Part shown: piece after piece, positions 456-47,026 of the stretch
How positions within the stretch are numbered: the stretch's first letter is position 1
Layout of the letters: every line of letters begins with the position of its first letter
Assembly: GCA_001788955.1 (NCBI GenBank)
Contig: MFXT01000026.1
Span: forward strand, 53,877 to 117,876
Direction of reading: 5' to 3'
Source of the DNA: Candidatus Peribacteria bacterium RIFCSPHIGHO2_02_FULL_49_16
Lineage (GTDB): Bacteria > Patescibacteriota > Gracilibacteria > Peribacterales > Peribacteraceae
DNA length: 64,000 nucleotides
Notes under the pieces: generated by a model
Told to the model about the DNA's origin: nothing
Seen by the model: the letters and a program-made list of their open reading frames with translations, nothing else
Database searches by the model: none
Translations under genes and position numbers: made by a program

Positions 456-486
456 CTATCACCTATTACCTACAACCTATCACCTA
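456..486. repeat. Degenerate 7-nt tandem repeat (ctatcac-ctattac-ctacaac-ctatcac-cta)
   Basis: Read directly from the sequence; it ends on the rpmG stop codon. Confidence 0.7.
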
Positions 487-678
487 ATTTGAGTGCTTCT
501 CTTCTTTCAGTTTCATTTTTGTTTGCTTACGGCACTCTGAACAATATTTCTCTACGGAAAAATCCTTTGGGGATTTGCCCTTGTTATTCTGTTTATGCAG
601 ACGCACGGTTCCCACTCGCCGCCGACATTCGGCGGATGAGCAGATCATGGCGTAGACGGTGCGCTTTCCTCTGGGCAT
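484..678 (-). CDS. rpmG: 50S ribosomal protein L33 (zinc-binding type, divergent)
   Basis: 64 aa, basic, C-x4-C and KYC-x2-CRK motifs with L33-like spacing. TAAGCT -10 box 6 nt upstream. Confidence 0.75.
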   Translation of the reverse strand: MPRGKRTVYAMICSSAECRRRVGTVRLHKQNNKGKSPKDFSVEKYCSECRKQTKMKLKEEKHSN

Positions 679-697
679 AGGGCCAGCTTAACGCTGG

Positions 698-728
698 AAA
701 TTCCAAATTCCAAGCACCAAATTTCAAA
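698..728. repeat. Degenerate 7-nt tandem repeat (aaattcc-aaattcc-aagcacc-aaatttc-aaa)
   Basis: Read directly; intergenic between rpmG and trxB. Confidence 0.7.
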
Positions 729-766
729 AGTCGCACGTATTCTTGTTTTTTAGAGGAAATTGCAGC

Positions 767-1684
767 TTAATTCTCTTCAAGATAGTGAAAAAGACTGTTT
801 GCGGCAACGGAGCCCTCTCCGGCAGCGGTTGTGAATTGGGCAAAATGATTGGAGCCGGAACTTAAGTCTCCAGCGGCAAATATTCCGGGGATACTCGTGC
901 GCATGCCCTCATCAACCTTCACATGCCCTCGCTCATCAATGTCACACCCAAGTTTCTTTGCCAGAACCGTATCTGCATCGGCGCCAATCTCCATGAAGAC
1001 GCCCTGTACATTGATCATGTCCGATCGCTCAAAATCTTTATCCAAACGAACGCCCGTGACCACCTGATCTCCCAAAACTTCCACGACGTTTCGCTCCAAA
1101 ACGAACACGACATTATCGCGTGCCTTTACGCGATCCACCCAGTACGGCTCTGCGCGAAATTCCTTGCGACGATGAATGAGATACACCTTATTTGCCACCT
1201 GCGCAGCGATTGCCGCACCTTCTACAGCCGCGTCCCCTCCTCCGACGACTGCCACATCTTTTCCTTTGTAGAAGTATGCATCGCATGTTGCGCAGTACGT
1301 TACACCTTTGCCCGAAAAATCCTCTTCCCCTGGAACACCGAGTTTTCTGTTCTTTGTTCCCGTCGCAAGAATCACTGTTTTTGCCTCCGCGGTCTCGCCG
1401 CTCTGCAATGTCACACGAAAGCCCTTATCCATCTTTTCTACAGTCTCCACACGTGCATTTTTATGTTCCACTCCATCAAAACTCAACGCATGCTCCTTAA
1501 ATTTCTCCATCAGATCAGGCCCTGCAATATGAATAATGCCAGGCCAGTCCCCCACCTCCGCAGCCGCCATCCCCGTTCCTCCCTCTTTATCACCAATAAT
1601 CAATGTGGAGAGCTTATATCGCGCCGTATAAATCGCCGCCGTATACCCGGCGCACCCCAAGCCGATAATAATGACATCGTACAT
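767..1684 (-). CDS. trxB: Thioredoxin-disulfide reductase
   Basis: N-terminal GxGxAG FAD motif, CATCD redox motif, VGGGD NADPH motif, IHRR, TSIPGIFAAGD. Confidence 0.92.
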   Translation of the reverse strand: MYDVIIIGLGCAGYTAAIYTARYKLSTLIIGDKEGGTGMAAAEVGDWPGIIHIAGPDLMEKFKEHALSFDGVEHKNARVETVEKMDKGFRVTLQSGETAEAKTVILATGTKNRKLGVPGEEDFSGKGVTYCATCDAYFYKGKDVAVVGGGDAAVEGAAIAAQVANKVYLIHRRKEFRAEPYWVDRVKARDNVVFVLERNVVEVLGDQVVTGVRLDKDFERSDMINVQGVFMEIGADADTVLAKKLGCDIDERGHVKVDEGMRTSIPGIFAAGDLSSGSNHFAQFTTAAGEGSVAANSLFHYLEEN

Positions 1685-1797
1685 GTCGCTCAGCTTACTG
1701 GAGTCTGCTTACAGAAAAAAGATACACCATAATACACGCACAAAAATGATCAAAAAGTCGCGAAGCGGAAGCTTGCTTCCGCTGGAGCGACACTAAG

Positions 1798-3102: not shown

Positions 3103-3123
3103 AGGGCAAGTATAGAGGTTGAA

Positions 3124-3209
3124 TGGTGCCGGGGGAGAGACTCGAACTCTCATTCCTTGTGGGAACGCGATTTTGAGTCGCGCGCGTCTACCGGTTCCGC
3201 CACCCCGGC
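3124..3209 (-). tRNA. tRNA-Leu(CAA)
   Basis: Reverse complement GCCGGGGTGGCGGAACCGGTAGACGC...CT-CAA-AA...long variable arm...GTTCGAGTC...GGCACCA. Confidence 0.95.
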
Positions 3210-3265
3210 TAATTCTGATAAATACTAACGTTTTCCGCCTGTAGATAAAAGCAAAAAGCGGTAAA

Positions 3266-4618
3266 ATGGAATCCTCCCTTATGAATCAGTACTCCACTTT
3301 CGTCTTCGAATCCACCGCTTTTGACGAGCGTTCGGGAAAAGTGCATTTGCATTATAGTATAGATGGAAAAATACACTTCGATGAAGTTGTGCAACTTCCG
3401 CGAAAAGGCATGCGGAAAAAGAACATTGATCCAGAGCTCTTCGATCGAGCACTCTTCAACCTGCACCTGATTGGCGGCATCAGTTACTACAAAACCTTCT
3501 GCCCGAAGGAAATCATTATCAAATCAGGAACGCTTTCTAAAAGCCAGGCTCTGTTCTGGAATGAGCTCTATGAAAACGGCCTCGGGGAATTCTTCTACTG
3601 TAATAATATTGATTTTCAGGATCTTATTCATTTTCCATATACAGAAAAGGATGCACCGTCTTACATTCCTTTTGCGCCAGAAAACACAGAAATTATTGTT
3701 CCCATCGGGGGCGGAAAAGATTCTCTCGTGAGCATAGAACTCCTGAAAGCCTCTGGGCATGCGTGCCTCGGACTGCGTATGGGAAAGCATCCGCTGATTA
3801 CTGTGCTTGCGGAGAAAGCAGGAATTCCTCTCCTCGAAATTTCCCGCACACTCGCGCCGGAACTTTTTACGCTTCATGAAAAAGGCGCCTTAAACGGCCA
3901 CGTTCCGATCACCGCTTACGTTTCATTTCTCTCTATTCTCACGGCCCTGCTCTACGGCCACTCCACCGTTGTTATGAGCAACGAGCGCAGCGCAAACGTC
4001 GGTTCTCTCATATACAAAGGAAAAGAGATCAATCATCAATGGAGCAAAGGGTTCTCCTTCGAAAAAGCATTGCAGCAGTACTGCAAAGAATTCATCACGC
4101 CCGATATCCGCTATTTCAGCCTTCTTCGTCCTCTAAGCGAACTCTCGATCGTCAAACAATTCACACGCTACCCGCAGTATTTCCCCTATTTCACAAGCTG
4201 TAATACCAATTGGAAAATTTCAGGAAATTATCAAGAAAAACGGTGGTGCAATATGTGTTCCAAATGCGCATGTATGTTTGCACTCTTTTCCGCATCTATG
4301 AGCAAAGAACATGTTCTCGAAATATTCGGGAAAAATCTCTACGAGCATGAAGAAACTCTTCCCCTCTTTCGTAAACTCCTCGGCAGCGAAGGATGGAAAC
4401 CTTTTGAATGCGTTGCACTTCCACAAGAGATGCAGGCGGCATTTATTCTCGCCAGAGAGCGAAACGATTGGAACGATACATTGGTCATGCAACGGTTCTT
4501 TACAGAAGAACTTCCACATCTCTGTCAAACAAAAGAACTCGTCCAGGATGTTCTCAAGCCCGTCTGTGACCACAGCATACCGAATGAATTCTCCACTATC
4601 CTTTCCTCCATCATATGA
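3266..4618 (+). CDS. murL: UDP-MurNAc-L-Ala-L-Glu epimerase (MurL)
   Basis: SYYKT, PIGGGKDS (PP-loop-like), NGHVPIT, SNERSA, NHQWSK, YFSLLRP, FTSCN, WCxxCSKC and KPFECV motifs. ATGA-coupled to a MurD-type ligase. Confidence 0.83.
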   Translation: MESSLMNQYSTFVFESTAFDERSGKVHLHYSIDGKIHFDEVVQLPRKGMRKKNIDPELFDRALFNLHLIGGISYYKTFCPKEIIIKSGTLSKSQALFWNELYENGLGEFFYCNNIDFQDLIHFPYTEKDAPSYIPFAPENTEIIVPIGGGKDSLVSIELLKASGHACLGLRMGKHPLITVLAEKAGIPLLEISRTLAPELFTLHEKGALNGHVPITAYVSFLSILTALLYGHSTVVMSNERSANVGSLIYKGKEINHQWSKGFSFEKALQQYCKEFITPDIRYFSLLRPLSELSIVKQFTRYPQYFPYFTSCNTNWKISGNYQEKRWCNMCSKCACMFALFSASMSKEHVLEIFGKNLYEHEETLPLFRKLLGSEGWKPFECVALPQEMQAAFILARERNDWNDTLVMQRFFTEELPHLCQTKELVQDVLKPVCDHSIPNEFSTILSSII

Positions 4619-5928
4619 TCTTGAAAGATCTCTATGGAAAGAGGGTATGCATTGTGGGATTTGGTAGAGAAGGACGGAGTGCTCTGAATGCTTTAAAAGA
4701 GAAATGTGAAGTAACTATTGCGGATAAAAATGAAAAATGTGAAACAAATCTGAAATGCCAAACAGGAGAAAATTATCTGAAACACTTGGAGCAATTTGAT
4801 GTAATTGTAAAGTCGCCTGGAGTGCCACCCTGTACCGAATTGGATGCTGTCAAAGATAAGATCACATCGGGAACGGCATTATTTTTAGAAGAAGCACAAC
4901 ATACGAATCATATCGTGATCGCAGTAACAGGATCGAAAGGAAAGAGTACAACCGCCTCACTCATTCATCACATACTGAAAACAGCAGAGAAAAGATCCGT
5001 TCTTCTTGGCAATATCGGCACACCGGCACTGGAACATTTGGATGATTTGAAAAATTCTGAACCAATGTACTTCGTCATGGAGCTTTCCAGTTATCAACTC
5101 ATGAATATCACTTGCAGCCCACACATTGCCGTCATCACCAGCTTCTTCCCGGAGCATCTCGATTATCATGGATCACTGGAAGCCTATAAAGAAGCAAAGA
5201 AGAATATCGCTCGCTTTCAGAAAGACGGGGATGTAATTTTTTACGCAGACACTCCCAAAGAAACTCAAGACATTGCAAAGATGTCACGAGGAAAACACAT
5301 GCCGTATGACAAAAAAGATGTTGTTTCAGTGATAGAAGACTTCGGATGTCAGCTTCTTGGAGAACACAATATTCATAATATCGCCGGTGCATGGAAAGTT
5401 GCTCACCATCTTGAACTTCCAGAGGAAACGACGATACAGGCCATTCAATCTTTCGCGCCACTCCCTCATCGTCTGGAAGAAATTGAAACATATGATGGAA
5501 TTCGATGGATCAATGACAGCATGTCCACAACCCCAGAGTCCACCATCGTCGCAATCGAAGCATTCGATGGAAACATCGATACCCTCATTCTCGGCGGCCA
5601 AGATCGTGGACTGGATTTTACCCACCTCATCGAACACATTGCTTCATCTGCTATTCAAACAGTAATCTGCCTCCCGGGCTCTGGCCACCGTATTGCCAAT
5701 GATCTCAAAAAAGCCAATATCCATACGATCATTGTCGCTTCACTGAAAGAAGCTATCCGGCATGTGCTACAAAAACCCCTACAACCCATAACCCATAACC
5801 TACAACCTATTTGCCTCCTCTCTCCAGCATCACCAAGCTACAATCAATTCAAAAATTTCGAAGAGAAAGGAGCGGCGTTTAAGAAGTATATTACGAAATA
5901 CTCGCCTTCACTCGCATCGTCGAAATAA
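4615..5928 (+). CDS. murD: UDP-MurNAc-L-Ala:glutamate ligase (MurD2-type, predicted to add L-Glu)
   Basis: GFGREG, KSPGV, AVTGSKGKSTT, GNIG, ELSSYQL, EHLDYH, PHRLE, NDS, LSPASPSYNQFKNFE. Adjacent to murL. Confidence 0.9.
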   Translation: MILKDLYGKRVCIVGFGREGRSALNALKEKCEVTIADKNEKCETNLKCQTGENYLKHLEQFDVIVKSPGVPPCTELDAVKDKITSGTALFLEEAQHTNHIVIAVTGSKGKSTTASLIHHILKTAEKRSVLLGNIGTPALEHLDDLKNSEPMYFVMELSSYQLMNITCSPHIAVITSFFPEHLDYHGSLEAYKEAKKNIARFQKDGDVIFYADTPKETQDIAKMSRGKHMPYDKKDVVSVIEDFGCQLLGEHNIHNIAGAWKVAHHLELPEETTIQAIQSFAPLPHRLEEIETYDGIRWINDSMSTTPESTIVAIEAFDGNIDTLILGGQDRGLDFTHLIEHIASSAIQTVICLPGSGHRIANDLKKANIHTIIVASLKEAIRHVLQKPLQPITHNLQPICLLSPASPSYNQFKNFEEKGAAFKKYITKYSPSLASSK

Positions 5929-16212: not shown

Positions 16213-16740
16213 TTATGGTGCCACGCATGGAACCGCGGGGTCTGCGATACAATTCTCCGCAGGCGGCTTTCCTTTCCACAGACAGGTTTGTGAATAGCGA
16301 CAGGCATCGTCGGTCATTTGTTCCAATTCATACAGTACCTGTGCACTCGCAGAGGACGTTGTAAGAAAAATTTGATCCATGTCTTCAAATACGTAATCCA
16401 GGTCAAATTCCATCTCTTCACCGTTCACGAACATGCGCCATTCCCGATCTCGCTGGAATGTGAAATCCAATGAATCAAAAAAATCTCGCAGAATCAGGCC
16501 GGGTTTATGCTGGTGAATGATACGATCGATGTGATCATGAAGATGCAAATACGGATGGAGATGATCATGATCATCCTCTAAGCCGGACATATGTTCTTTT
16601 CCTGAAAAATCCACCTTCTCCCCATCCACCCACACCGCAAAATCCGCATGCGTGTGATTTGGATCCGGATTCTCTGTATACTGCCTCTCGCAGGCAAAAA
16701 ATAGAATAGATAGACAAAAGAGGAGAGAAAAGCGTTTCAT
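16213..16740 (-). CDS. His/Cys-rich hypothetical lipoprotein
   Basis: MKRFSLLFCLSILFFAC lipobox; HTHADF, HDHLHPYLHLHDH, HQH and four C-terminal Cys. Confidence 0.7.
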   Translation of the reverse strand: MKRFSLLFCLSILFFACERQYTENPDPNHTHADFAVWVDGEKVDFSGKEHMSGLEDDHDHLHPYLHLHDHIDRIIHQHKPGLILRDFFDSLDFTFQRDREWRMFVNGEEMEFDLDYVFEDMDQIFLTTSSASAQVLYELEQMTDDACRYSQTCLWKGKPPAENCIADPAVPCVAP

Positions 16741-16805
16741 AAGAGAATTCATCATCTTAAAAAACTTTCCGTAAGTCAACATCATAGTCCATAATTTCTA
16801 TCACT

Positions 16806-16882
16806 GCCACGGTAGCTCAGTTGGTTAGAGCGCGGGACTCATAAGCCCGAGGTCGGAGGTTCGATCCCTCCCCGTGGCACCA
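16806..16882 (+). tRNA. tRNA with CAT anticodon (elongator Met most likely; Ile2 not excluded)
   Basis: GCCACGGTAGCTCAGTTGGTTAGAGC...CT-CAT-AA...GGTTCGATCC...GGCACCA. G1-C72 is paired, so not an initiator. Confidence 0.9.
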
Positions 16883-16915
16883 CGTAAAATATACTTGCCA
16901 ATCTTGGAACTACTT

Positions 16916-17242
16916 CTACCCGAACGTCAGCACCTTGTCCGATTCCTCAACGAGACGCAGGAGGTCGGTCATGGTTGAGACTGGGCAAGCCGCGCTTTCG
17001 GGCTGTGATCGGTTCTTGAGACAGCTTCCGCAGGCAAGGAGCTGACCTCCGAGAGCGGTGAACTCTTCGACCTTCTTGGAAACGCCAAAGCGTTCCGTGT
17101 CGGGGATGCGCTCGAGTTCCACTCCCTCGCTCAAAAGAAAGATACGCACGTCGTGCTTTGCTTTCCGCGCCGTGATCGCGAGCCGCAGCGCGTTCCAGAC
17201 GCGCTCGGGTTCGTTCGATTGCAGGATGATGCCCAGCTTCAT
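16916..17242 (-). CDS. DsrE/DsrF-family protein
   Basis: WNALRLA, VRIFLLSEGVE, ACGSCL, C-terminal DKVLTF; GC-rich codons. Confidence 0.85.
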   Translation of the reverse strand: MKLGIILQSNEPERVWNALRLAITARKAKHDVRIFLLSEGVELERIPDTERFGVSKKVEEFTALGGQLLACGSCLKNRSQPESAACPVSTMTDLLRLVEESDKVLTFG

Positions 17243-17248
17243 GAAGTG

Positions 17249-17950
17249 TCAGGAGAGATCCTTTTTGCGCTCATCAAACTCTTTCTTGTCGATTTCTCCT
17301 TTGGCGTATCGCTCCTTCAGGATGTCGAGCGCGGAGTTTCCTCCCGCCGTACCGGAGCTGCGCGAGAGCCATTTCACGAGCGCGACGATCCCGGCGATGA
17401 TGAGTACCCACCAGAGGATCATGAAGATCATGCCGAAGGGCGCGAAGCCACTGAACCCGTATCCCATCATGGACGACATCGTATCAGGAGTAGCGCCGTT
17501 TGACCAGCTTCCCATCATCGGAGAGTTGTTGTTCCAGCCTCCCCCCATCTTGCCGCCACCCATCATCCCCATCATGGGCATCATCATCCCCGCGTTCCCC
17601 ATAGGGAGCGTTCCGTCTCCTCCGCACCCGCTCATTCGCTTGCCCATGACAACGTGCATCTGTTCTTCGCCTTCCTCGCCCATCATCCGTGTCATCATGG
17701 CGTTCATCGCCTCGTGCGCGTCGCCCGTCATCTCCCCCATGAAGTATTCACCGAGAGCGGCGAACTGCTCATCGGTAAGATCCTTGCACTCCACTTCTTC
17801 CCGCCCCATCTTCTGCCAGACTTCTTTCCCCTCCGCTTCCTCCTGCGCGGTATGATCGCCGGAGGGTGCCATCATCGCTTCCTGTGCGGAGGCGATGGGC
17901 GAGAGGAGGAGTGTGCCGGTGATGAGAGCGACGGAGAGGCGGTGGAGCAT
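17249..17950 (-). CDS. Secreted/membrane Met-Gly-rich protein with C-terminal SHOCT domain
   Basis: Signal peptide, HEAMNAMM and Met/Gly-rich linker, TM helix, ALDILKERYAKGEIDKKEFDERKKDL. Confidence 0.85.
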   Translation of the reverse strand: MLHRLSVALITGTLLLSPIASAQEAMMAPSGDHTAQEEAEGKEVWQKMGREEVECKDLTDEQFAALGEYFMGEMTGDAHEAMNAMMTRMMGEEGEEQMHVVMGKRMSGCGGDGTLPMGNAGMMMPMMGMMGGGKMGGGWNNNSPMMGSWSNGATPDTMSSMMGYGFSGFAPFGMIFMILWWVLIIAGIVALVKWLSRSSGTAGGNSALDILKERYAKGEIDKKEFDERKKDLS

Positions 17951-17984
17951 GGTGTGAGGAAGGAATGTCCCGTAGTATACACGC

Positions 17985-18368
17985 ATGGACTTCGATTACA
18001 CAGTCATCACAGGCAAAGACTTCGCTTCCGCGTTCGTAAGCGTGCAGGAGGAGATCTCGAAGGCGGGGATGCGCGTCCTTCACGTTCATGACGTGCAGGC
18101 GACACTCGCGGAGAAAGGTATCAACCGTGATTCGTACAAGATCGTGGAGTTCTGTAACGCAAAGTACGCGAGCGAGTTTCTCCGAACCGATCCCAAGATC
18201 GGTCTTTGTATGCCGTGCAAGATCAACGTGTATGTCCATGAGGGGAAAGTCTGGATCGTTGGGATGCGCCCCATTGTCCTCCCGCAGTTCTTCCCGCATG
18301 TCGATCTGGGAAATATGCCGCAGGAAGTTGATGCCATCGTGCGGTCGATCATCGACAAGGCGAAGTGA
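17985..18368 (+). CDS. DUF302 domain protein
   Basis: HDVQATL.EKG, YKIVEFCN, IGLCMPCKINVY motifs. Confidence 0.85.
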   Translation: MDFDYTVITGKDFASAFVSVQEEISKAGMRVLHVHDVQATLAEKGINRDSYKIVEFCNAKYASEFLRTDPKIGLCMPCKINVYVHEGKVWIVGMRPIVLPQFFPHVDLGNMPQEVDAIVRSIIDKAK

Positions 18369-18532
18369 GTGCCGAATCCCTATGCGCCTTTGGTCATGTG
18401 CGGCTCTAACAGTGGTTTTACCAAAGAAGTGCGAATGTGTGGGTTGATCCTGATAGATCCTATGTCCAGTTCGACCACCAAAAGATATGATCTCTGATGA
18501 CCCATCCCACCATTCGACTCGACAAGCAATCC

Positions 18533-20233
18533 TTACTTCTCTTTAGAGAAAAACCCGTGCTCACCCGTCTTCATATCCATAACGAAATTCTCCTGTGGGA
18601 ACAGAAAATAGATAAAATCATTGGGAATATGATACTGATCTTCAATTTCCTGCGGCTGCCAGTCAAAAACTTGATAGATGCCAAGGACATCGATGCCACC
18701 CACGTAAATGGTATGAATCTTCGTTTCCTCTGGAAGCGTCTTTCGATACTCCGTCTCCCGATACGTATCGATAATATATTTTGGCTGAAAGTTATCCCAC
18801 AAAATGAGCAACAAACGCGATCTCTCTTCAGGAGTAAACATATGAAATGCCGCATATCCGGGGCTGCTGATGGGATAATAAGGAATAAGATCCGTATCAT
18901 CATGCTCTAAAATGTATTCGAGAGCTTCTCTGTACGCGAGTCCCCAATAATCCAGTTCGAATTTTCCTTCCACAAAGCGGTTTGGAATCGAGAAATAGAT
19001 ATATTCCAGTGGATGATTACGGATCATGAAGATGCCAGTCATGAAAAAACTTATGATGAAAAGACTGGAAACCGTAAGCGGCAAGCCGTAAGCGGCAAGC
19101 CCATTGCTTCCTGCTTTCAGTTTTTGCATAAGCCAGCGCACGCCAATAACACCAATGAGTAAAAAGGCGGGATAAATAAAGAAGAGATGGCGCCACGTAT
19201 CAAAGATGCCGGCGCGAAGAATAATGACGGCGGCAATAGGACCAAAAAACCAGACAAGAAAAAGAAATTCTTCCTGTTTTTTGAGAATGAGCGTTGAAAG
19301 AGAACGTGCATAACGCATGAAAAAAGACGCACACCCAAGAAGAAAACACGCCGTATAAAGCAGTGGCGTCGAAATGAAGATCCAGACCGGAATCCAGTGC
19401 CACGGGTTGTAACCCAATTTCTCTCCCATATAGAAACCTCCCGGTCCTTTTGTGCTCATATAGCGGAACGCTTCGAGAAAATGTACAAAAGGATGCGTCC
19501 AGAGAAGAGGCCATAAACAAATCGTGAGAACAAACCACAGAACGCAATAAAAAAAGGACCATCGAAACGCATGGAGAAGACGCACACTTCTTCCTCCGGA
19601 TTTCCCAACCCATGCCTGCAGAAAAAGAAACAAGACTGTCAGAACAGGGAGAAGAACGCCGGTCATGCGCAAACTCACAAGGAGCGCGCATGCAAGCGCG
19701 TGCGCAAACACGGTCAAAAGACGCCTGCGTTCGGAAAAACACAAGAGCGTATACATCGATAGAATAAAAAGTGACATCGTCGGAATATCACGCGAGTTGA
19801 AGAACGCATGACCAAAGAGCCGCGGGCTCAAAACAAGCATCACTGCGGGAAGAAGGCCCCAGAACCAACTCTTGAAATGTTTTCTTCCCAAAAGATAGAG
19901 AAAAAACACACCGAGATAAAACACCAAAAAACTTACAAAATGCCGCATGAAAAATACCTGCTGTGCATTCTTCACCGAAAGAACCTTTTCGAGTGTGTAA
20001 AGAAACAATTCAAAAACCGTACCGTGATACCGTCGCCCGGGATCCGTCGTCCATTCCTTCCCATAAAATACCGTCTCGTATGCTTCCATTCCCATCACAT
20101 ACTGCGTCTTTTCATCCCAAGAAATTCCATAATTATCGTGCACCAAAACACCGATCACCAATACCACGAGAAAAAACACTCCCACAACCATGGTTCCGTA
20201 TTTTTCAGAGAACATACGCAGCGCTTGATACAT
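18533..20233 (-). CDS. Polytopic membrane glycosyltransferase (GT-C, ArnT/PMT-like)
   Basis: YGISWDE acidic loop after TM1, SPRLFGHAFFNSRDIP, RHLFFIYP, ELDYWG; many TM helices. Confidence 0.78.
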   Translation of the reverse strand: MYQALRMFSEKYGTMVVGVFFLVVLVIGVLVHDNYGISWDEKTQYVMGMEAYETVFYGKEWTTDPGRRYHGTVFELFLYTLEKVLSVKNAQQVFFMRHFVSFLVFYLGVFFLYLLGRKHFKSWFWGLLPAVMLVLSPRLFGHAFFNSRDIPTMSLFILSMYTLLCFSERRRLLTVFAHALACALLVSLRMTGVLLPVLTVLFLFLQAWVGKSGGRSVRLLHAFRWSFFYCVLWFVLTICLWPLLWTHPFVHFLEAFRYMSTKGPGGFYMGEKLGYNPWHWIPVWIFISTPLLYTACFLLGCASFFMRYARSLSTLILKKQEEFLFLVWFFGPIAAVIILRAGIFDTWRHLFFIYPAFLLIGVIGVRWLMQKLKAGSNGLAAYGLPLTVSSLFIISFFMTGIFMIRNHPLEYIYFSIPNRFVEGKFELDYWGLAYREALEYILEHDDTDLIPYYPISSPGYAAFHMFTPEERSRLLLILWDNFQPKYIIDTYRETEYRKTLPEETKIHTIYVGGIDVLGIYQVFDWQPQEIEDQYHIPNDFIYFLFPQENFVMDMKTGEHGFFSKEK

Positions 20234-20279: not shown

Positions 20280-21029
20280 ATGCAGCAACAGAAAGCCATT
20301 CTCTTGTGTTTACACGGATGGGGAGGATCGAAAGAATCATTTACAGAATTACGGGAAGCATTGAAGGATGCGGATATCACCATCCTCACACCCGATCTCC
20401 CCGGCTTTGGAGAAGAATCAGAACCCCCACGACCCTGGAACACAGATGATTATGCCCTTTGGGCTGAAGAGTGGCTGGCTCGTCACCTGCAACCTACAAC
20501 CTGCAACCTACAACCTCTTTACATACTTGGACATTCTCATGGCGGCCGCATCGCCCTAAAAATCGCGCACAATCAATCCCTACAACCTATCACGCATCTC
20601 TTCCTCTGTGCTGCGGCAGGCATTCGCCGTCCAAAACACACCAAGCGTATCATTGGCCTTACACTTGCAAAAACAGGGAAATTCGTGCTCTCTATCCCAG
20701 GATTCCATCTTCTTGCGCCTTTAGGAAAGAAATTTCTCTACAAGCTCTTCCGTGTCCACAATTATGAACGCGCAAGCCCGATCATGCGCCAAACGCTTAT
20801 CAACGTCACTAAAGAAGATATCCTACCATATTTGGCACAGATCAATTGTCCGACAGACATCTTCTGGGGAGAAGACGACCGAATGACGCCGCTTGCAGAC
20901 GGCATTCTGATGCACAAATCCATAAAAAACAGTGAATTCCACCATTTTTCCCACACCAGCCACCGTGTGCATCGGGATCGCGCAGAGGAGATTGCCAAGG
21001 TGATTCGCGCTAGAATAAGTCAGAAATGA
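20280..21029 (+). CDS. Alpha/beta hydrolase
   Basis: LHGWGG, DLPGFG, nucleophile elbow GHSHGG, WGEDD, late His. Confidence 0.88.
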   Translation: MQQQKAILLCLHGWGGSKESFTELREALKDADITILTPDLPGFGEESEPPRPWNTDDYALWAEEWLARHLQPTTCNLQPLYILGHSHGGRIALKIAHNQSLQPITHLFLCAAAGIRRPKHTKRIIGLTLAKTGKFVLSIPGFHLLAPLGKKFLYKLFRVHNYERASPIMRQTLINVTKEDILPYLAQINCPTDIFWGEDDRMTPLADGILMHKSIKNSEFHHFSHTSHRVHRDRAEEIAKVIRARISQK

Positions 21030-22441
21030 CCTCTGCTCTCCTCACCCTTCTCGTTCTCACCGCCTCTCTCTCTCCTCTCCTCACGTTTGCCGCACTCTGG
21101 CAAATGAAGGAATGGCGATGGGATCGATTGCGCGAGCATGTACGAGAAACAGGATGGGGACAACTGGTGGGAAAAGTACGACCGGCTCTGTTGCTACTTT
21201 TAGTCCTCCACATATTCGTTTCCAATGATGGATCTATCATTCTACTCATCCTCTTCGCATTCACAGGATTGAACATCCTGCAGATTTTTCTCAAAAAACA
21301 ACGCTATCCCGTATGGACGAAGAAAGCCATCATGCTCATGGGAACATCCGTCATTATTACTGCAATAATCGGATATATAGTAGTCGAAAGGTTACTCGTT
21401 ATTTTTGTTCCAATTTTTCAGCCTCTCATCCTCACTCTGGCCCTAACCCTTTTCCTTCCTCTAGATCGATTTCTCAAAAATCGAATACTGCAAAAAGCAA
21501 AAACTCTTCGCTCGCGGTTTCCTAAACTCGTTGTCATCGGCATCACGGGAAGTGTTGGAAAGACAACCACAAAAGAACTTCTCGCACATCTTCTGCAGGA
21601 CAAAAAACCTCTCGTTACCCCGGAGCACGTCAATACCGAACTTGGTGTCGCAAACTGGATAATAGAAAAATTATGCGATGTACAACAATTGTCCGAACAA
21701 GTCGTGATTATCGAGATGGGTGCCTACTGCAAAGGGGAAATCGCCACTCTTTGCTCCATGACTCAACCAACAATCGGTATCATCACCATGATCGGTTCTC
21801 AACACCTCGGCCTCTTCGGATCACAGAAACATATCGTTGATGCAAAAGGAGAGCTCTTCGATGCTCTCCCCCATTCCGGCCGTGCATTCATCAATGCAGA
21901 GTCGCCTTTTCTCGATGTTCTCCGAAAAAAATGCCAATGTCCATGCAATGTCATCGAAAAAAAAACAATTCTAAAAAATCCCCGCTTTAATGCAGATATT
22001 GCAATAGTGGTGGCAAAATTCTTGGGTGTAAACGAGCAACAAGTGAACGAGAAACTCGCGACGTTCTCTCTGCCGAAACATACATTCTCTATTCGTAAGC
22101 AATCGAATATCACGATCCTCGACGATACGCATAACAGCAGTCCCGAGAGTTTTCGCGTCGCCATCGAATGGGCACGAATCCAGCCCCAGAAAGAAAAAAT
22201 CCTCCTCGCCTCCGGCATCATCGAACTGGGAAAAGAATCTGATCGCATCCATGAAGAACTTGGCACTCTTGCCACCTCCGTCTTCTCCAAAGCTCTTATT
22301 GTCAACTCCTCTGCTGCCAAAGCCTTTGCAAAAGGATTTCAAAAACCCTTGTCGCCTATCCCCTGTCACCTATCCTCTCATTCTCTTCTCTGCTGCATCG
22401 GGCGCATTCCTCCATCTTTAATAAAAAAATTCCTTTCATAA
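21026..22441 (+). CDS. murF: UDP-MurNAc-tripeptide:D-Ala-D-Ala ligase (MurF-like) with N-terminal TM segments
   Basis: GITGSVGKTTTKE, NTELG, IEMGA, QHLGLFGS, KGEL, DDTHNSSP, IELG. Confidence 0.82.
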   Translation: MTSALLTLLVLTASLSPLLTFAALWQMKEWRWDRLREHVRETGWGQLVGKVRPALLLLLVLHIFVSNDGSIILLILFAFTGLNILQIFLKKQRYPVWTKKAIMLMGTSVIITAIIGYIVVERLLVIFVPIFQPLILTLALTLFLPLDRFLKNRILQKAKTLRSRFPKLVVIGITGSVGKTTTKELLAHLLQDKKPLVTPEHVNTELGVANWIIEKLCDVQQLSEQVVIIEMGAYCKGEIATLCSMTQPTIGIITMIGSQHLGLFGSQKHIVDAKGELFDALPHSGRAFINAESPFLDVLRKKCQCPCNVIEKKTILKNPRFNADIAIVVAKFLGVNEQQVNEKLATFSLPKHTFSIRKQSNITILDDTHNSSPESFRVAIEWARIQPQKEKILLASGIIELGKESDRIHEELGTLATSVFSKALIVNSSAAKAFAKGFQKPLSPIPCHLSSHSLLCCIGRIPPSLIKKFLS

Positions 22442-22454
22442 GTTTCAATTTTCA

Positions 22455-23654
22455 ATGCTCAATTTATCTTCTCCTATCAATCACACTTTCGCTCCTCACG
22501 TCGATACGTGTTATGTATTCCATGCTCTTTGGTTGGCAATGCAGCCATGGAAGTGGAGAAAGGGAAAAGAACAGGAGAAGCTTCGTGAAGCGCTTGAGCA
22601 GTACTTCGATGCAGACGTGACGCTCTTCGCCTCCGGACGCGAAGCACTTCTCGCACTTTTACAATCCCTCAAGGTCAAAGAAGGCGATGAAGTTATCGTA
22701 CAAGGTTATACCTGTACCGTCATCCCGAATGCCATTCATGCCACAGGGGCACAACCTGTGTATGCTGACATTGATCCGGAAACGTTGAATCTCACAAAAG
22801 AAACTGTGGAGCCCCTCATCTCCAATCGCACACGTGCAATCATTTGTCAGCACACTTTCGGTATTCCCGCAGATACAGAAAAACTCCGGACACTCTGTGA
22901 TGAGTACGCGATTCCCCTTATCGAAGACTGCGCTCACATCATTCCCGATGTCAAAGGACCCAAAGAAATCGGAAAATATGGAGACTATCTCTTCTTAAGT
23001 TTTGGAAGAGATAAGGCGATTTCTGGGATTGCCGGTGGAGCACTTGTGAGAAAGGGGCCACGGATGGCAGGCAAATTCCACATGCCAAATACATTCCAAA
23101 TGCCACATTCCAAAACGATCCGTCTCCTGCTTTATCCTCTTATATATTCCTTTGCGCGGCCGCTGTATGGGATTGGAATTGGAAAAATGTTTCTATGGCT
23201 TTGCGGAAAACTCGGTCTTCTTGTCCCCATTATGACAAACAACGAAAAAAAGGGGCACATGGTCATGACTTTTCACGAAATCCCCAATGCCATTGCCGGA
23301 ATCGCCGTTGCACAATTCCAAAAACTTCAGCTAATCAATGACCATCGTCGAATATTGACACAGTTATATTTGCAAGCATGCAAAGACAACAACTGGAAAA
23401 CGCTTGATGGCATCACCGAAGATCTTCCCCTGCAAAAATTCCCCCTGTTCATTCAAAACGCAGATTCCATTCGCAATCAATTCAAAAAATATAATATCCA
23501 TCTCCATGACGGTTGGACCGGCTGTACGATCATCACAGAAAGTGTTCATGCCAAGACCATCGAAAAACACATTTTGAATCTCCCGACTCATCCCACAATG
23601 ACCAACAAACAAGCACAGAAGCTTATACGTTCTCTTAAAAACATTCATCAATGA
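22455..23654 (+). CDS. DegT/DnrJ/EryC1/StrS-family PLP aminotransferase
   Basis: SGREAL, QHTFG, IEDCAH, SFGRDK (PLP lysine), LNLPTHP. Confidence 0.85.
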   Translation: MLNLSSPINHTFAPHVDTCYVFHALWLAMQPWKWRKGKEQEKLREALEQYFDADVTLFASGREALLALLQSLKVKEGDEVIVQGYTCTVIPNAIHATGAQPVYADIDPETLNLTKETVEPLISNRTRAIICQHTFGIPADTEKLRTLCDEYAIPLIEDCAHIIPDVKGPKEIGKYGDYLFLSFGRDKAISGIAGGALVRKGPRMAGKFHMPNTFQMPHSKTIRLLLYPLIYSFARPLYGIGIGKMFLWLCGKLGLLVPIMTNNEKKGHMVMTFHEIPNAIAGIAVAQFQKLQLINDHRRILTQLYLQACKDNNWKTLDGITEDLPLQKFPLFIQNADSIRNQFKKYNIHLHDGWTGCTIITESVHAKTIEKHILNLPTHPTMTNKQAQKLIRSLKNIHQ

Positions 23655-32143: not shown

Positions 32144-33022
32144 ATGCATCCATTTTCTCTCGTCTTCTGTGGCACACCGGCATTTGCTCTCCCATCACTG
32201 CACATTCTGTGCAGTGATCCCGCATTTGATGTAAAACTTGTCATCACACAACCCGACAAACCCATCGGACGTGATAAAAATCTTCACTCACCACCGGTGA
32301 AGCACGTTGCAGAAAAATATGGCATCAAAGTCTTGCAACCAAAAAATATGAATAAGGAGCTATCATCTATCAATGATCAGTTGTCATCTCGTCCAGACTT
32401 TCTTGTTGTTGTCGCCTATGGACAAATCCTCTCGCAGGAGATTCTCGATATTCCTGCTATTGCTCCTGTAAATATCCACGCCTCTCTTCTTCCACGATGG
32501 AGAGGAGCATCTCCTCTTCAACACACCATTCTGCACGGAGACACGGTCGGCGGCGTCACTATCCAGCGCATGGAATATGCACTCGATGCCGGTCCGATCC
32601 TCGCACAGAAATCTCTTTTTCTCGATCCGCGGGAAACCACAGTCACTCTGCGCGACAAACTTTCCACGCTTGGGGCAGAACTTCTTCAGAAAACTCTGAA
32701 AGAGCCTTTACATCCTGAATCACAAGACCCGACTAAGGTGACCATGTGTCATAAATTGACACGTGCAGACGGTCACGTACAGACGGAAACCATGACGGCA
32801 GAAGAAATTGATCGCAGCGTGCGCGCGCTTGTCCCCTGGCCGGGCGTCACACTCTTCAATCAGACAGTAAAAATTCTCGAAACTGCGCTTGAACCAATGG
32901 AACATGCATATCCGATTCCCTGTGCAGAAAATACAATCCTCTATCTCGTCACTGTGCAACCGCCCGGGAAAAAACCGATGACCGGTGCAGCATGGGCACG
33001 GGGACGACCTACTCCATCCTGA
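32144..33022 (+). CDS. fmt: Methionyl-tRNA formyltransferase
   Basis: FCGTPAFA, TQPDKP.GR, VVAYGQIL, NIHASLLPRWRGASP, LDAGPI, RALVPWPG. Confidence 0.95.
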   Translation: MHPFSLVFCGTPAFALPSLHILCSDPAFDVKLVITQPDKPIGRDKNLHSPPVKHVAEKYGIKVLQPKNMNKELSSINDQLSSRPDFLVVVAYGQILSQEILDIPAIAPVNIHASLLPRWRGASPLQHTILHGDTVGGVTIQRMEYALDAGPILAQKSLFLDPRETTVTLRDKLSTLGAELLQKTLKEPLHPESQDPTKVTMCHKLTRADGHVQTETMTAEEIDRSVRALVPWPGVTLFNQTVKILETALEPMEHAYPIPCAENTILYLVTVQPPGKKPMTGAAWARGRPTPS

Positions 33023-39727: not shown

Positions 39728-40552
39728 ATGATCGATTCCCACTGCCATCTTGCAGACAAACAGTTTTTACATGATCTCGAGGAGATCATTATACACGCGC
39801 GTGATGCGGGCGTTGATCACATAATCACGATTGCCGATACGCTGGAGGAAGGAGAGAGGTGCATCGAGATTGCCATGAAGTATTCTTCGAGACTTCATGA
39901 TGCCACCAAAAAATATCCGAATATTTTTGCAACCGTTGGTGTTCATCCGCATAACGCCACGCAATGGCGAATGACCAATGGTCAAGCTCCAACCATCAAG
40001 CTTCGATCACTTCTTGAATCTTCCACAAAAGTAGTTGCTGTCGGAGAAATCGGGTTGGACTACCATTATATGAATTCACCAAAGGTGATTCAGCAAAATG
40101 CGTTCAAAGAACAATTACAACTCGCAAAAGAACTTGGCCTTCCTGCAGTCATTCACTCCCGTGAAGCGCTTGAAGACACGTGGAATATCATTCGGGAAAC
40201 ATGTCCAGAAAAATGCGTTCTTCATTGCTGTACGGAACAGTGGAAAAACGTGAAAAGATTTATTGATGCAGGATATTTCCTCTCATTCACCGGCATCGCC
40301 ACCTATCCAAAGTCCGACGAGATCCGCCACACTATCCGCGAATGTCCACTCAATCAGATAATGATCGAGACGGATGCTCCGTATCTGCCCCCCGAAGCTC
40401 TCCGAGTACAGAAAGGTACACGGGTGCGCAATGAACCCGCAAACGTCCTCGAAATCGCGAAATGTATCGCGGAAACGAAAGGAATTTCTCTGGAGGAAGT
40501 GGATCGAATAACGACACGCAATGCGATAAAGTTCTTTACACTGCCCTCGTAG
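39728..40552 (+). CDS. tatD: TatD-family DNase
   Basis: IDSHCHL, GVHPH, AVGEIGLDYHY, IHSREA, LHCC, ETDAPYL, RNEPA. Confidence 0.93.
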   Translation: MIDSHCHLADKQFLHDLEEIIIHARDAGVDHIITIADTLEEGERCIEIAMKYSSRLHDATKKYPNIFATVGVHPHNATQWRMTNGQAPTIKLRSLLESSTKVVAVGEIGLDYHYMNSPKVIQQNAFKEQLQLAKELGLPAVIHSREALEDTWNIIRETCPEKCVLHCCTEQWKNVKRFIDAGYFLSFTGIATYPKSDEIRHTIRECPLNQIMIETDAPYLPPEALRVQKGTRVRNEPANVLEIAKCIAETKGISLEEVDRITTRNAIKFFTLPS

Positions 40553-43514: not shown

Positions 43515-43553
43515 AGTATCCGTAGACAGTATGCGCTACACTGCACTCGAAAG

Positions 43554-44108: not shown

Positions 44109-44147
44109 CATTCGGAAGAAAATTCTTAAAAATATCGTCACTCTCTT

Positions 44148-44570
44148 ATGGCAAAACAGATTCAAAAACTTATCAAAGTACAAGTACGCGGAGGGCAGGC
44201 AAACCCAGCTCCTCCACTCGGGCCTGCACTCGGACAGGCCGGTGTTGATATTGGCGGTTTTTGTAATCAATTTAATAATAAGACAAAAGACCGCATGGGT
44301 CAGCTTATTCCCGTCGTTATCACGGTCTACGATGATCGCAGCTTTTCTTTCATTCTCAAGCAACCACCTGCATCCGCTCTCATCAAGGAAAAAGCAAAAC
44401 TCTCCAAAGGAAGTGGCGAACCGAATAAAATCAAAGTAGGCAAACTCACCAAAGCACAAGTGAAGGAAATCGCAGAAATCAAAATGCCTGATCTCAACGC
44501 GGGAAATCTCGCTGCAGCAATAAAAATTATCGAAGGTTCTGCATGCAGTATGGGTGTCACCATCGAATAA
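44148..44570 (+). CDS. rplK: 50S ribosomal protein L11
   Basis: [40 protein letters not shown]. Confidence 0.97.
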
Positions 44571-44652
44571 AGTTCTACGAAACGCAACGTGATTCTCATG
44601 CAAAATGCATGCAATCTGATTAATCTAGAGAACATTCTTTCCTTTTCTACGT

Positions 44653-45309
44653 ATGTTCCAAGAGTTTATCACCGTAATCTGGGGACCCGCCGGTATTGTT
44701 GCTCTTATCTCCAGTCTTCTTCTCCTCTTCGCGCTCTTTGCATTGATATTGATTCCGAGTCTCGCGCGCGACGCTGCAAAGCCACAAGATATCGGTGAAG
44801 CGATGTACTGCTATTTTGCACAGAGCACGGGTATTATTCTTATGAGCGTTGGGGGATTGCCGATCCTGTATTCCGTTCTCACACGTGTTCCTTTAGCCAG
44901 CCTCACATATTCCGCCCTGCTCTTCATTTTTGCGATCGGTGGTCTTGTCTTTCTGTGGCATGATCACATCTCACACCACCTCCCGGAATCTGCGGTATTG
45001 GTCATACGTACTGTCTATCTCTTCGCATGGAAATTTATTGGCTTCATTATTTTTCTCTTCACACTGATCTCATTTGTCCTGCACATTCTCCTCAATGGTA
45101 CGGTAACAACGGACATACTGCTTATCCATCTCATTGTTGCACTCTACGGACTCGTACTCTGGTGGACCACTCGTGAATTTTCTCTTTCCATACCTCCCTT
45201 CTTTCATCATAAAAAGATACGTTTAGCAATGCTGACGCCCTCAAAACCCGAAAAAGCAAAAGCACCCAAGAAGAAGAAAATAAGGAGAAAAAGGAAAAAA
45301 GAAGCCTAG
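44653..45309 (+). CDS. Hypothetical membrane protein (about 5 TM) with a basic tail
   Basis: 218-aa hydrophobic ORF between rplK and rplA; K/R-rich C-terminus. Confidence 0.75.
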   Translation: MFQEFITVIWGPAGIVALISSLLLLFALFALILIPSLARDAAKPQDIGEAMYCYFAQSTGIILMSVGGLPILYSVLTRVPLASLTYSALLFIFAIGGLVFLWHDHISHHLPESAVLVIRTVYLFAWKFIGFIIFLFTLISFVLHILLNGTVTTDILLIHLIVALYGLVLWWTTREFSLSIPPFFHHKKIRLAMLTPSKPEKAKAPKKKKIRRKRKKEA

Positions 45310-45371
45310 TCCTTGCTTTTTTTGGACAAAACCGGAAAAATCGACGCTCGCAACACATTCTCTTTTCTTTT

Positions 45372-46046
45372 ATGACACGAGGAAAAACATACCGTGAAAA
45401 ACGCACGCTGATTGAGAAAGAATCGTATCCTATTTCACAGGCAATGGATCTTTTAACAAAGGTCAGTAGGGTAAAATTTGATGCCACAGCCGAAGCGCAT
45501 ATTCGCATCAAGGCAGATACGACAGAGGCAAATCAACTTGTACGCACAACTGTCAATCTTCCGCACGGCACCGGAAAGACTGTACGTATTGCCGCCTTTG
45601 TTCCGGACGAACTCGCAAAAGACGCAAAAGCAGCGGGAGCAGATATTGTCGGCAATGAAGATCTGATTGCGCAGATAGAAAAAGGGAAAATCGAATTCGA
45701 TGCTGCTGTCGCCGTACCGGCAGTGATGAAAAAGCTTGGAAAAGTCGCCAAAATACTCGGTCAGAAAGGCCTTATGCCCAATCCTAAGGCTGGAACAGTG
45801 ACAGACAACATCACCAAAACCATCGGGGAGCTTAAAAAAGGACGCATAGAATGTAAGATGGATACATTCGGAATCATTCACGTTCCTTTTGGCAAAATCT
45901 CTTTTGGAAAAGAGAAGCTCGAAGAAAACTTCACTACCCTCATGCAAGCTATAACAGATGCCCGTCCTGCCGGCATCAAAGGAATCTATATTTCCTCCGT
46001 CACCGTATGCCCGACAATGGGACCGGGAATCAAGATTCAGATATAA
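45372..46046 (+). CDS. rplA: 50S ribosomal protein L1
   Basis: KFDAT, LPHGTGK, LGQKGLMPNPKAGTVT, HVPFGKISF, TMGPGI. Confidence 0.97.
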   Translation: MTRGKTYREKRTLIEKESYPISQAMDLLTKVSRVKFDATAEAHIRIKADTTEANQLVRTTVNLPHGTGKTVRIAAFVPDELAKDAKAAGADIVGNEDLIAQIEKGKIEFDAAVAVPAVMKKLGKVAKILGQKGLMPNPKAGTVTDNITKTIGELKKGRIECKMDTFGIIHVPFGKISFGKEKLEENFTTLMQAITDARPAGIKGIYISSVTVCPTMGPGIKIQI

Positions 46047-46051
46047 GCTGA

Positions 46052-47026
46052 TCACACACGCAAGAGTTGCCGTACTTCTTCCAACTTCTCCACTTTTACA
46101 AGTTTAGCCCGAAGCTCTGCCGCACCGGGGAATCCTTTTATATAACTACTTAAGTGTTTTCGCATTTCCCGCATCCCACGCCCCTCCCCCTTCAATCGTA
46201 CCGCTAATTCACAGTGCTGGAGGATAAAAGGAACCTTTTCTGTAAATGAAATAGCAGTATATTCGTGACTACTCGTTCGCTCGTTATATGTTGCTCGTTG
46301 TAAAGCGTCACAAATCTCTCGCATAACCCACGGGTTCCCAAACGTTCCCCGTCCCACCATAACCCCATCAAGGTTGCCGATCTTTTTGACGGCATCTTCC
46401 GCCGTGTGAATATCACCATTCCCGATTACCGGTACAGATATTTGTCGTTTGAGTTCATAGATCGGTTCCCAGTCTGCGGCCCCTGAAAATTTTTGATGAT
46501 ATGTCCGACCGTGAATCGCAAACGCATCGGCACCGGCCTCGACGAGTTTTTTACAAAAGGGAATAAGTGTTTCAGATGTATTCCATCCAAGGCGCGTCTT
46601 GACGCTGACAGGAATGGATACGGCTTTCTTGGTGGCATAGACCAGTTCTTGCGCAAGTTCCGGTTTCTGAATCAATGCGGAACCGTGGCAGGACGATACG
46701 ACTTTTGCCGCAGGGCATCCCATGTTGATATCGATACCATCCGCTCCAAGTTCTTCAATAATTTTGGCTGCAGAGAGAAAGTGATCTGCATCTTTTCCAA
46801 ATATCTGCACAATGAACGGACGTTCTCTGTCAACATCGAAGTGCAGCATCTGCATCGTCCGTTTCGCGCCGTAATGGATCGCATCCGTACTCAAAAACTC
46901 CGTATAGACAATCGTCTCTGGTGCGATACCTTTAATAAATTGCCGGTACGACGCGTCCGTCACTCCTGCCATTGGAGCAAGGGCAACAAGCGGCCGGGGA
47001 GCATCTTTCCAAGAAAATGGACCCAT
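46052..47026 (-). CDS. dusB: tRNA-dihydrouridine synthase
   Basis: LAPMAGVTD, IDINMGCP, PVSVKTRLG, IHGRT, IGNGDI, GVMVGRG. Confidence 0.92.
   Translation of the reverse strand: MGPFSWKDAPRPLVALAPMAGVTDASYRQFIKGIAPETIVYTEFLSTDAIHYGAKRTMQMLHFDVDRERPFIVQIFGKDADHFLSAAKIIEELGADGIDINMGCPAAKVVSSCHGSALIQKPELAQELVYATKKAVSIPVSVKTRLGWNTSETLIPFCKKLVEAGADAFAIHGRTYHQKFSGAADWEPIYELKRQISVPVIGNGDIHTAEDAVKKIGNLDGVMVGRGTFGNPWVMREICDALQRATYNERTSSHEYTAISFTEKVPFILQHCELAVRLKGEGRGMREMRKHLSSYIKGFPGAAELRAKLVKVEKLEEVRQLLRV

Follow-up and report, generated by a model that had tools for sequence, protein, structure and literature searches.

What are the short, imperfect runs of seven-nucleotide units that recur through a stretch of a Peribacteraceae genome, inside enzyme genes as well as between genes, and how did they come to be there? 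The stretch—called the window here—is a 64,000-nt piece (C26:53877-117876) of G000, a 917-kb metagenome-assembled genome (MAG) in 26 contigs from groundwater, which belongs to the Peregrinibacteria of the candidate phyla radiation (CPR). The heptamer arrays are real, and the strong ones stand far above chance and above other periods. We lean towards reading them as microsatellite-type repeats of heptanucleotides: mini-arrays, some 3-5 units each and most often near 32 nt long, which slippage and selective filtering would have shaped. A sequence-only reading had earlier picked out ten sites in the window and proposed that they mark an undescribed system, with scars of an inserting and excising element or a templating enzyme as possible sources.

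The excess of period 7 was measured over the whole genome. A lag-p self-match detector (mismatch -2, score at least 10) was run with codon-shuffled genes and shuffled spacers as controls, which rest on our own crude gene caller (744 genes, 87.5% coding). At lag 7 this finds 46 segments in G000 against a mean of 1.1 (range 0-2) in eight codon shuffles; lags 5, 8, 10, 11 and 13 give 2, 12, 8, 5 and 7. Tandem Repeats Finder (TRF) returns 89 rows of period 7 and 24 of period 14, compared with 21-32 and 2-8 in five order-5 Markov genomes; period 8 gives 39 versus 17-35 and period 10 gives 35 versus 31-45. Individual sites were scored with the same kind of detector at a mismatch cost of -1 and a threshold of at least 10 at lag 7 or lag 14, and on that scale G000 yields 87 segments at lag 7, where a codon-shuffled genome averages 5.2, and 66 at lag 14, where it averages 5.6. 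At the lower lag-7 score of 8, 189 segments are observed and 49.6 occur in shuffles. The congener G001, a same-genus genome that was fetched whole and is an independent MAG, has 24 lag-7 segments compared with 1.2 in its codon shuffles.

These numbers also bear on the simplest doubt, that the arrays are chance, codon periodicity or an assembly artefact. Some matches do look like chance: two of the ten noted sites, in fmt and dusB, lie at or near chance level, and 5 of the 44 'genic' matches compared with G001 fall in conserved sequence and resemble chance periodicity (C6 8360, C21 9225, C23 30657, C23 65360 and C26 86636). For the strong arrays, however, the doubt is refuted by the controls, with 1-2 segments against 46 in the shuffles and 21-32 rows against 89 in the Markov genomes. 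Seven is not a multiple of three, reading frames remain open across the arrays, the excess is repeated in G001 and about 40 other genomes, and identical proteins have been deposited from up to 15 contigs. We give an artefact next to no weight.

Within the window the sequence-only description proves mostly accurate, and eight of the ten noted sites reach the threshold at lag 7 or lag 14 (Table 1). The fmt site is marginal, since it scores at a level where about a quarter of matches are expected by chance; the dusB site is rejected as a heptamer array, as its 12 of 38 lag-7 matches come near the 8 of 29 of a non-periodic segment of the G001 hydrolase. The tatD array is non-conserved relative to G001 and falls below a TRF score of 30. 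An eleventh site, the perfect array at 19072-19101, had been missed; it lies in a membrane-protein gene without a Pfam family. The murD array directly follows the end of the Mur_ligase_C match (residue 386), the murF array is near the C-terminus, and the Pfam DegT match ends at residue 209, at the edge of the aminotransferase stretch, which is likewise non-conserved relative to G001. Pfam confirms the window genes murD, alpha/beta hydrolase, murF, DegT-type aminotransferase, fmt, tatD and dus, and Rfam finds only 7 tRNAs over the window and no match at the arrays. The nearest named relative of the MurD protein comes from a Candidatus Peregrinibacteria MAG, and homologues of the hydrolase bear the names Peribacteria and Peribacteraceae.

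Table 1. Repeat sites of the window, with their setting and detection (window coordinates)
Position	Strand	Repeat	Setting	Detection
456..486		CTATCAC CTATTAC CTACAAC CTATCAC CTA (CCTAYMA family)	5' edge of NUDIX open reading frame (- strand; Pfam), upstream of in-frame ATG 444-442	TRF, 4.4 copies; lag-7 score 14
698..728		AAATTCC x4.4, degenerate	some 40 nt past the stop codon of a thioredoxin-reductase-like gene (767-1684, -; Pfam)	TRF; lag-7 score 10
5778..5809	+	CCTACAA CCCATAA CCCATAA CCTACAA CCTA	in frame in murD (4615-5928); peptide LQPITHNLQPI	TRF; lag-7 score 17
19072..19101	gene on -	perfect 14-nt double unit x2.1, CCGTAAGCGGCAAG on +	inside 566-aa membrane-protein gene (18533-20233, -)	TRF, 100% matches
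20485..20516	+	ACCTGCA ACCTACA x2.3 (perfect 14-mer)	in frame in alpha/beta hydrolase gene (20280-21029); peptide HLQPTTCNLQP	TRF; lag-7 score 19
22346..22378	+	CCCTTGTCGCCTAT CCCCTGTCACCTAT CC, 14-nt period	in frame in murF (21026-22441); peptide PLSPIPCHLS	TRF (22346-22375); lag-14 score 13
22440..22465	+	TTTCAAT TTTCAAT GCTCAAT TT	fills the 13-nt murF-aminotransferase spacer and includes the aminotransferase ATG (22455)	TRF (22443-22465); lag-7 score 11
23072..23114	+	degenerate 7/14-nt periodic stretch	DegT-type aminotransferase gene (22455-23654); peptide GKFHMPNTFQMPHSK	TRF period 14, 78% matches, 18% indels; lag-14 score 10
32360..32387	+	CTATCAT CTATCAA TGATCAG TTGTCAT (marginal candidate)	fmt	lag-7 score 8; 16/29 lag-7 matches
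39962..39985	+	CAATGGC GAATGAC CAATGGT CAAG (weak)	tatD	lag-7 score 9, lag-14 score 12; 12/23 lag-7 matches
46262..46300	-	not a heptamer array	dusB	lag-7 score 4, lag-14 score 8

The anatomy of the arrays was described on 61 examples from G000, with dinucleotide runs removed. Called genes hold 43 of them, 7 sit at gene edges and 11 are intergenic; set against 802.5 kb of coding and 114.7 kb of non-coding sequence (the latter with 18 arrays, intergenic and edge together), the density is about 54 per Mb inside genes and 96-157 per Mb outside, or about 2-3 times higher outside. Units are very diverse within and between genomes. The largest family, CCTAYMA with at most one mismatch, accounts for 21 of the 61, and a second group is AT-rich (AATTGAT, GAAATCA and similar). 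The claim that each array has its own core therefore holds only in part—there are many units, but the arrays at 456-486 and in murD, the hydrolase and murF all belong to CCTAYMA—and the shared peptides (LQP.T.NLQP) reported in unrelated proteins are indeed there. Perfect 14-nt periodicity made of two different heptamers appears in seven TRF rows of the genome, and slippage of two-unit blocks would explain it.

Strand choice follows the reading frame. In 15 of the 16 genic CCTAYMA arrays the C-rich, TAG-free form is on the sense strand, and the exception lies at relative position 0.97 of its open reading frame (ORF), with an in-frame peptide that ends in a stop (VVGCRL*). We attribute the bias to a stop-codon filter, because the reverse form contains TAG and an array of at least three units traverses all three frames. 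A replication-strand bias was considered and rejected; the orientation of non-genic arrays is unrelated to local GC skew (3/5 and 0/4). Hairpin pairing was likewise rejected for G000, where 0 of 64 arrays have an inverted partner within 2 kb, or 1 of 46 within 1 kb.

Where the arrays fall in proteins was judged by aligning each array-bearing protein to its G001 orthologue, and the classes are our own reading of the alignments. Besides the five 'genic' matches in conserved sequence, which are probably chance, three have no homologue and about eight lie in ORF extensions past the ends of the G001 proteins and are probably untranslated; the remainder occupy non-conserved segments between conserved flanks, with or without a length difference. 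At least eight sites are heptamer-periodic in both genomes, often with different units, for example ATCACCT/ATAACCT versus CCCGCTA in a ligase-like gene and CAGAAAT versus CGCTCAC in C22 54489. The same-genus MurD is 11 residues shorter at the array, and the MurD loop carries an AATTCTC array in one sister genus (G009) and a GCAAGAA array in another (G015). At the MurF site G001 has CCTACAA/CCTATAA units interrupted by a 21-nt palindrome, and G424 has a 7-residue periodic peptide. Such sharing of loops by unrelated units in different genera would follow if permissive loops are few and the birth rate of arrays is high.

The hydrolase loop gives the fullest picture. Across 120 orthologues, identity within the loop is 17.2% at lag 7 and 5.4-6.9% at other lags, and 25 orthologues have at least three lag-7 identities versus 2-5 at other lags; these counts overstate the effect because related genomes are not independent samples. 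At the DNA level, heptamer arrays occupy the loop in 9 of 21 family genomes and use at least eight unrelated units. The AlphaFold model, whose mean pLDDT (the model's own confidence measure) is 92.7, shows the array as a surface loop, residues 70-79, between helix 55-69 and strand 80-85, the strand that precedes the nucleophile elbow; the loop block has a pLDDT of 78, the lowest ten-residue block of the first 120 residues. The view that arrays persist in tolerant loops, put forward in the sequence-only reading, agrees with both the alignments and this model. The birth of the hydrolase array is undatable because no relative closer than the best non-self match, at 72% identity, was found.

The G001 palindrome (core CTGCCTGCCGGCAGGCAG) is inserted at CC^TA in two heptamer arrays, L140:12105-12122 and L138:5650-5667. 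One array lies in murF and the other in a 502-aa gene, and the insert is translated in frame as PACRQA(G/R); the palindrome occurs 12 times in G001 and 0 times in G000. MurF of this genus and of G429 is without a block of about 40-45 residues (GGPADLEAF...PLHGTHNVTN) after residue 310 that most of the 27 other family members aligned (L174-L200) carry, so searches with the G000 protein match block-carrying members only to residue about 310. The MurD of G017 (L015:1477-3318) contains a complete in-frame DUF559 (restriction-endonuclease-like) domain, residues 419-526, inside its C-terminal ligase domain, flanked by proline/glycine-rich low-complexity peptides.

Direct evidence of unit change comes from one allele. 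P0133, a 400-aa protein from one ENA contig, is the product of the membrane-protein gene at 18533-20233 minus exactly 14 nt of its array, and what remains of that gene is recorded as a separate ORF of 164 aa whose longest contig has the same listed length, 3,162 nt. Neither deleting 7 or 21 nt from the array nor inserting 7 or 14 nt into it reproduces P0133. Because the allele is exactly 14 nt short and frameshifted, unit slippage does happen; assembly collapse is an unlikely cause, since no word longer than 16 nt recurs within a 30-nt tract of period 14. The public protein collection in which it was found holds 16 of the 27 array-bearing proteins, and members of the other 15 clusters differ only by point changes or by truncations that lie away from the arrays, without on/off polymorphism. 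A metagenome pattern scan for variable-gap alleles of the 456-486 array gave 0 matches, in a collection that possibly leaves out the genome's own records.

Two observations from metagenome contigs stand apart. In run X7 one contig (depth 13) jumps back from 5810 to 5778 across an intervening CA, which would be a murD array 35 nt, or five units, longer; the contig is only 88% alike and may stem from another array-bearing locus or organism. Around 16500-18500 contigs with many variants pile up: their summed depth reaches 15-735 across the bins of 16506-18506, and 264-735 in 16506-17172, compared with about 2-13 elsewhere. A tRNA (16806-16879) and a conserved gene draw in contigs from many other organisms.

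The arrays are a lineage trait of many Peribacteraceae. Around murD and murF of other genera of the family we find 54 lag-7 arrays in 176.5 kb, with 8, 1 and 2 at lags 8, 10 and 11. Among 401 Patescibacteria genomes sampled (including the unpublished G182, counted in tallies only), 15 contain (CCTAYMA)x3, with five among 11 same-family genomes and nine scattered elsewhere. Outgroup loci (L022-L100) hold 84 lag-7 arrays in 1.29 Mb, with lengths to 110 nt; the first 60 outgroup matches listed are mostly rumen Bacteroidales, with AACCTTA/AACCCTA and AGTTAGC units around murD as examples.

Relatives of G000 also offer a candidate source for the arrays. Genes of the four-helix-bundle family PF05635 (23S-rRNA-IVS/Avd-like, or S23p; IVS, intervening sequence) occur in 35 of the 41 family genomes searched, G000 being included in that number without any, and in 224 of the 401 sampled. 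They are multicopy, with up to 24 matches (G010) and 10 each in G005 and G440. A heptamer array lies within 150 nt of the ORF at 8 of 10 loci in relatives, and all six loci examined have inverted heptamer-built arms, 27-37 nt long, 76-88% complementary and 327-385 nt apart, with a unit that differs per cassette. Profile searches with PF05635 and TIGR02436 gave no match in G000, G001, G002, G008 or G014. The sequence-only reading had suggested looking in relatives for a four-helix-bundle gene flanked by heptamers; it exists there, but neither G000 nor its congener has one. One locus of G005 (L226:312-389) shows a heptamer array followed 12 nt later by an inverted copy with no gene between, an 'empty' array hairpin.

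The solo arrays of G000 could be orphan arms or products of a dedicated cassette system that would write or spread the arrays and whose S23p/Avd-like gene the genus lost, an origin we hold possible though on the unlikely side. The spread and copy number of the gene fit it, as do the nearby arrays and arms, whose length agrees with the 30-33-nt mode of solo arrays, and the occurrence of common units at different loci. Three gene-rich genomes carry 124, 79 and 158 arrays per Mb, three gene-less genera 0, 8 and 0, and all 14 other genomes of the phylum with (CCTAYMA)x3 carry the gene, compared with 210 of the remaining 386 (54%). In G003 the in-frame murD array (AACTACC) and a cassette arm (ACTACCT/ACTAACC) have similar units, and variable-number heptameric repeats beside an S23p ORF are published for one IVS (PMC4990558). 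However, arrays reach 50 per Mb in G000 and 29 in G001, where neither of two family models detects the gene, and G016 also has arrays without PF05635. Nor do the G000 arrays look like relics in their condition: lag-7 identity averages 0.91 with 10 of 46 perfect, versus 0.87 with 2 of 46 perfect in gene-rich genomes, so the idea that they are more decayed was dropped. Arm units vary from copy to copy, unlike transposon ends; insertion of a cassette would disrupt murD or murF; the link may run in reverse, cassettes having settled at existing arrays; the genomes compared are related and thus not independent samples; and the sole variant seen is ordinary unit loss. The proposed insertion and excision scars, or a templating enzyme, found no support either; no reverse transcriptase was found in G000 or G001, and that one variant allele is a plain whole-unit deletion. 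A broader version, in which arrays of about 32 nt and S23p/Avd-like genes form one widespread undescribed system, a protein or cassette making, copying or stabilising set-length arrays of any unit with the G000 arrays as leftover arms, seems to us unlikely; if true, it would account for the abundance of repeats of 7 nt, rather than of other sizes, in bacterial lineages of patchy distribution.

We judge it quite improbable that the arrays are functional cis-elements, sites at which a protein or RNA reads phased heptamers in translation, transcription or mRNA processing. Placement gives the idea some appeal: one array contains the aminotransferase ATG, another lies just upstream of the NUDIX ATG, and others precede S19-like and TsaD-like genes once the true starts are placed by comparison with G001 and a 341-aa database member. 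Array position is kept across genera, length is uniform, and regulatory roles have been proposed for the TAACTGA repeats of Beggiatoaceae (PMC4679880) and the Geobacter four-heptanucleotide elements (PMC2700814). Yet one hydrolase loop holds at least eight different units and orthologous sites carry unrelated ones, which leaves no room for a conserved sequence-specific reader; moreover, most arrays are inside coding loops of unrelated enzymes, and three sister genera do without them.

What we favour instead, slippage with selective filtering, draws on the excess, the one whole-unit change and the placement both within and between genes, from which we infer that slipped-strand mispairing would create and homogenise arrays, blocks of two units included. 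In genes, selection would leave survivors that are stop-free on the sense strand, frame-keeping and in tolerant surface loops, translated through all three unit frames into 7-residue periodic peptides, and the PF05635 link in relatives would be shared use of the same array material rather than its cause. Several results weigh against this account. Lengths are not geometric: in a set of 123 arrays (G000, the congener and 46 loci of other genera) 40 measure 30-33 nt, about 4.6 units, and only 12 are longer, with no such peak at periods 6, 8, 9 and 12. Units are more alike between loci than expected, 157 of 1830 pairs differing at no more than one position, whereas 200 random draws gave 39 on average and 63 at most. 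Several arrays substitute for a non-conserved stretch of about the same length, and the clean insertions in multiples of 21 nt that the sequence-only reading expected were not borne out. Because each 7-nt step shifts the frame, it is hard to see how an array could grow stepwise inside an essential gene. A unit variant appears in only 1 of 16 protein clusters, and contigs from four metagenome runs are identical to the window without array indels, although contigs drop rare variants. Three sister genera are nearly array-free (0, 1 and 0 arrays in 160, 120 and 120 kb), which means that arrays are not a general property of the family's replication. Simple slippage does not explain the 32-nt mode, the shared units or the tight association with PF05635 cassettes, and these three keep a cassette-linked origin alive.

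G000 also contains repeats of other kinds. A 21-nt tandem repeat that is not built of heptamers runs for 8.8 copies with 99% matches at C17:25013-25196, and long (CT)n/(GA)n runs occur at C9:9735-9778, C18:6160-6185 (a contig end) and C7:40732-40759. A dispersed mini-hairpin, CCCTCCC-(3-6 nt)-GGGAGGG, is present in 37 copies, 6 of them in called genes (for example C7:37619-37810, C21:128-206 and C26:20882-20899), and a 24-nt hairpin of the CAGCGCACGAAGGATCGTACGCTG type in 8; neither hairpin is present in the window.

Heptamers have been known as the favoured long tandem unit in many bacteria since a 2007 report, and the reason is still unexplained. The present lineage combines small genomes with dense translated repeats, so that the reading frame records every change, and its sister genera with and without arrays, and with and without PF05635, are natural contrasts. 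Across the 401-genome sample the arrays are tightly linked to PF05635, a family of unknown function; together with the sharing of loops by unrelated units, this link and these contrasts open the origin of heptamer repeats and the role of the four-helix bundle to direct testing. Annotation of CPR proteins benefits too, since many short low-complexity insertions and false N-terminal extensions trace to such arrays.

How do the arrays compare with known systems? Phase-variable contingency loci are frameshift switches made of simple sequence repeats (SSRs). The arrays resemble them in having a unit that is not a multiple of three and in one membrane-protein allele frameshifted by unit loss; however, no such allele appears in the other 15 clusters, minority alleles cannot show in metagenome contigs, and most G000 arrays are in essential enzymes where a switch-off would be lethal. 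Elhai and colleagues (2008) are said to have found small dispersed repeats inserted into Nostoc heptamer arrays; the palindrome in two heptamer arrays of G001 is similar, although it is absent from G000. A diversity-generating retroelement would combine a reverse transcriptase with an Avd-like accessory gene and a template/variable repeat pair; no PF00078 or PF05635 match was found in G000 or G001, and template/variable repeat pairs were not searched for. In the 23S rRNA IVS of Warrier et al. (2016, PMC4990558), an S23p ORF is accompanied by an inverted-repeat stem and by heptameric repeats, 2-3 in number depending on the strain. Relatives of G000 share the PF05635 ORF between inverted heptamer arms, but their cassettes are dispersed, multicopy and not shown to be in rRNA, whereas G000 has solo arrays, with neither a PF05635/TIGR02436 ORF nor two pairing inverted arms.

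Among repeats proper, the short tandemly repeated repetitive (STRR) sequences of cyanobacteria, Nostoc GGGGA(C/T)T and Xanthomonas GGGAATC (Rehm et al. 2015, PMC4692102) share the genome-wide enrichment of heptamer arrays, and most Xanthomonas arrays lie between the same genes in two species while differing in length and sequence, as at the G000 loops; in contrast to ours, those arrays are described as mostly intergenic, G-rich (quadruplex-forming) and often much longer. The TAACTGA repeats of marine Beggiatoaceae, cyanobacteria and Bacteroidetes (MacGregor 2015, PMC4679880) have 2-6 copies, stop codons that dictate ORF orientation, translated 7-residue repeats and one unit that recurs in distant lineages; that is a single unit found mainly just upstream of start codons, whereas G000 has many units, most in genes. 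The closest described case is the four-tandem-heptanucleotide element of Geobacter metallireducens (Gmet_H4##; Aklujkar et al. 2009, PMC2700814), with about four heptamers per element and dozens of copies in and between genes. There, one GC-rich unit, GGGACCG, is given for all 49 sites; G000 units are diverse, with no one unit conserved genome-wide and 21 of 61 arrays in CCTAYMA.

Our literature search found no report of such arrays in Peregrinibacteria, and the Peribacteria genome paper contains neither 'heptam' nor 'tandem', though it describes indels of tens of bp in twelve proteins between strains. The system is nonetheless not undescribed, as the sequence-only reading had it, since heptanucleotide repeats in and between genes are published (PMC2700814, PMC4692102, PMC4679880). 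In many prokaryotes no class of long SSR is commoner than the heptanucleotides, for which polymerase slippage has been suggested (Mrazek 2007, summarised in PMC4679880 and PMC4692102), and the distribution seen here agrees with that view. The long SSRs of Mrazek, Guo & Shah 2007 (5-11-nt class), as those two summaries present them, share with the G000 arrays over-represented 7-nt units, a patchy distribution and a proposed slippage origin; the G000 arrays differ in being short (mode 4.6 units) and often in frame in housekeeping enzymes, and their CPR host is not covered in those summaries. G000 has at least three head-to-tail 7-nt units per array, an excess over chance and over neighbouring sizes, placement within and between genes, and whole-unit change in one -14 nt allele (1 of 16 clusters). 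The arrays belong to a known kind of bacterial repeat, the heptanucleotide long SSRs.

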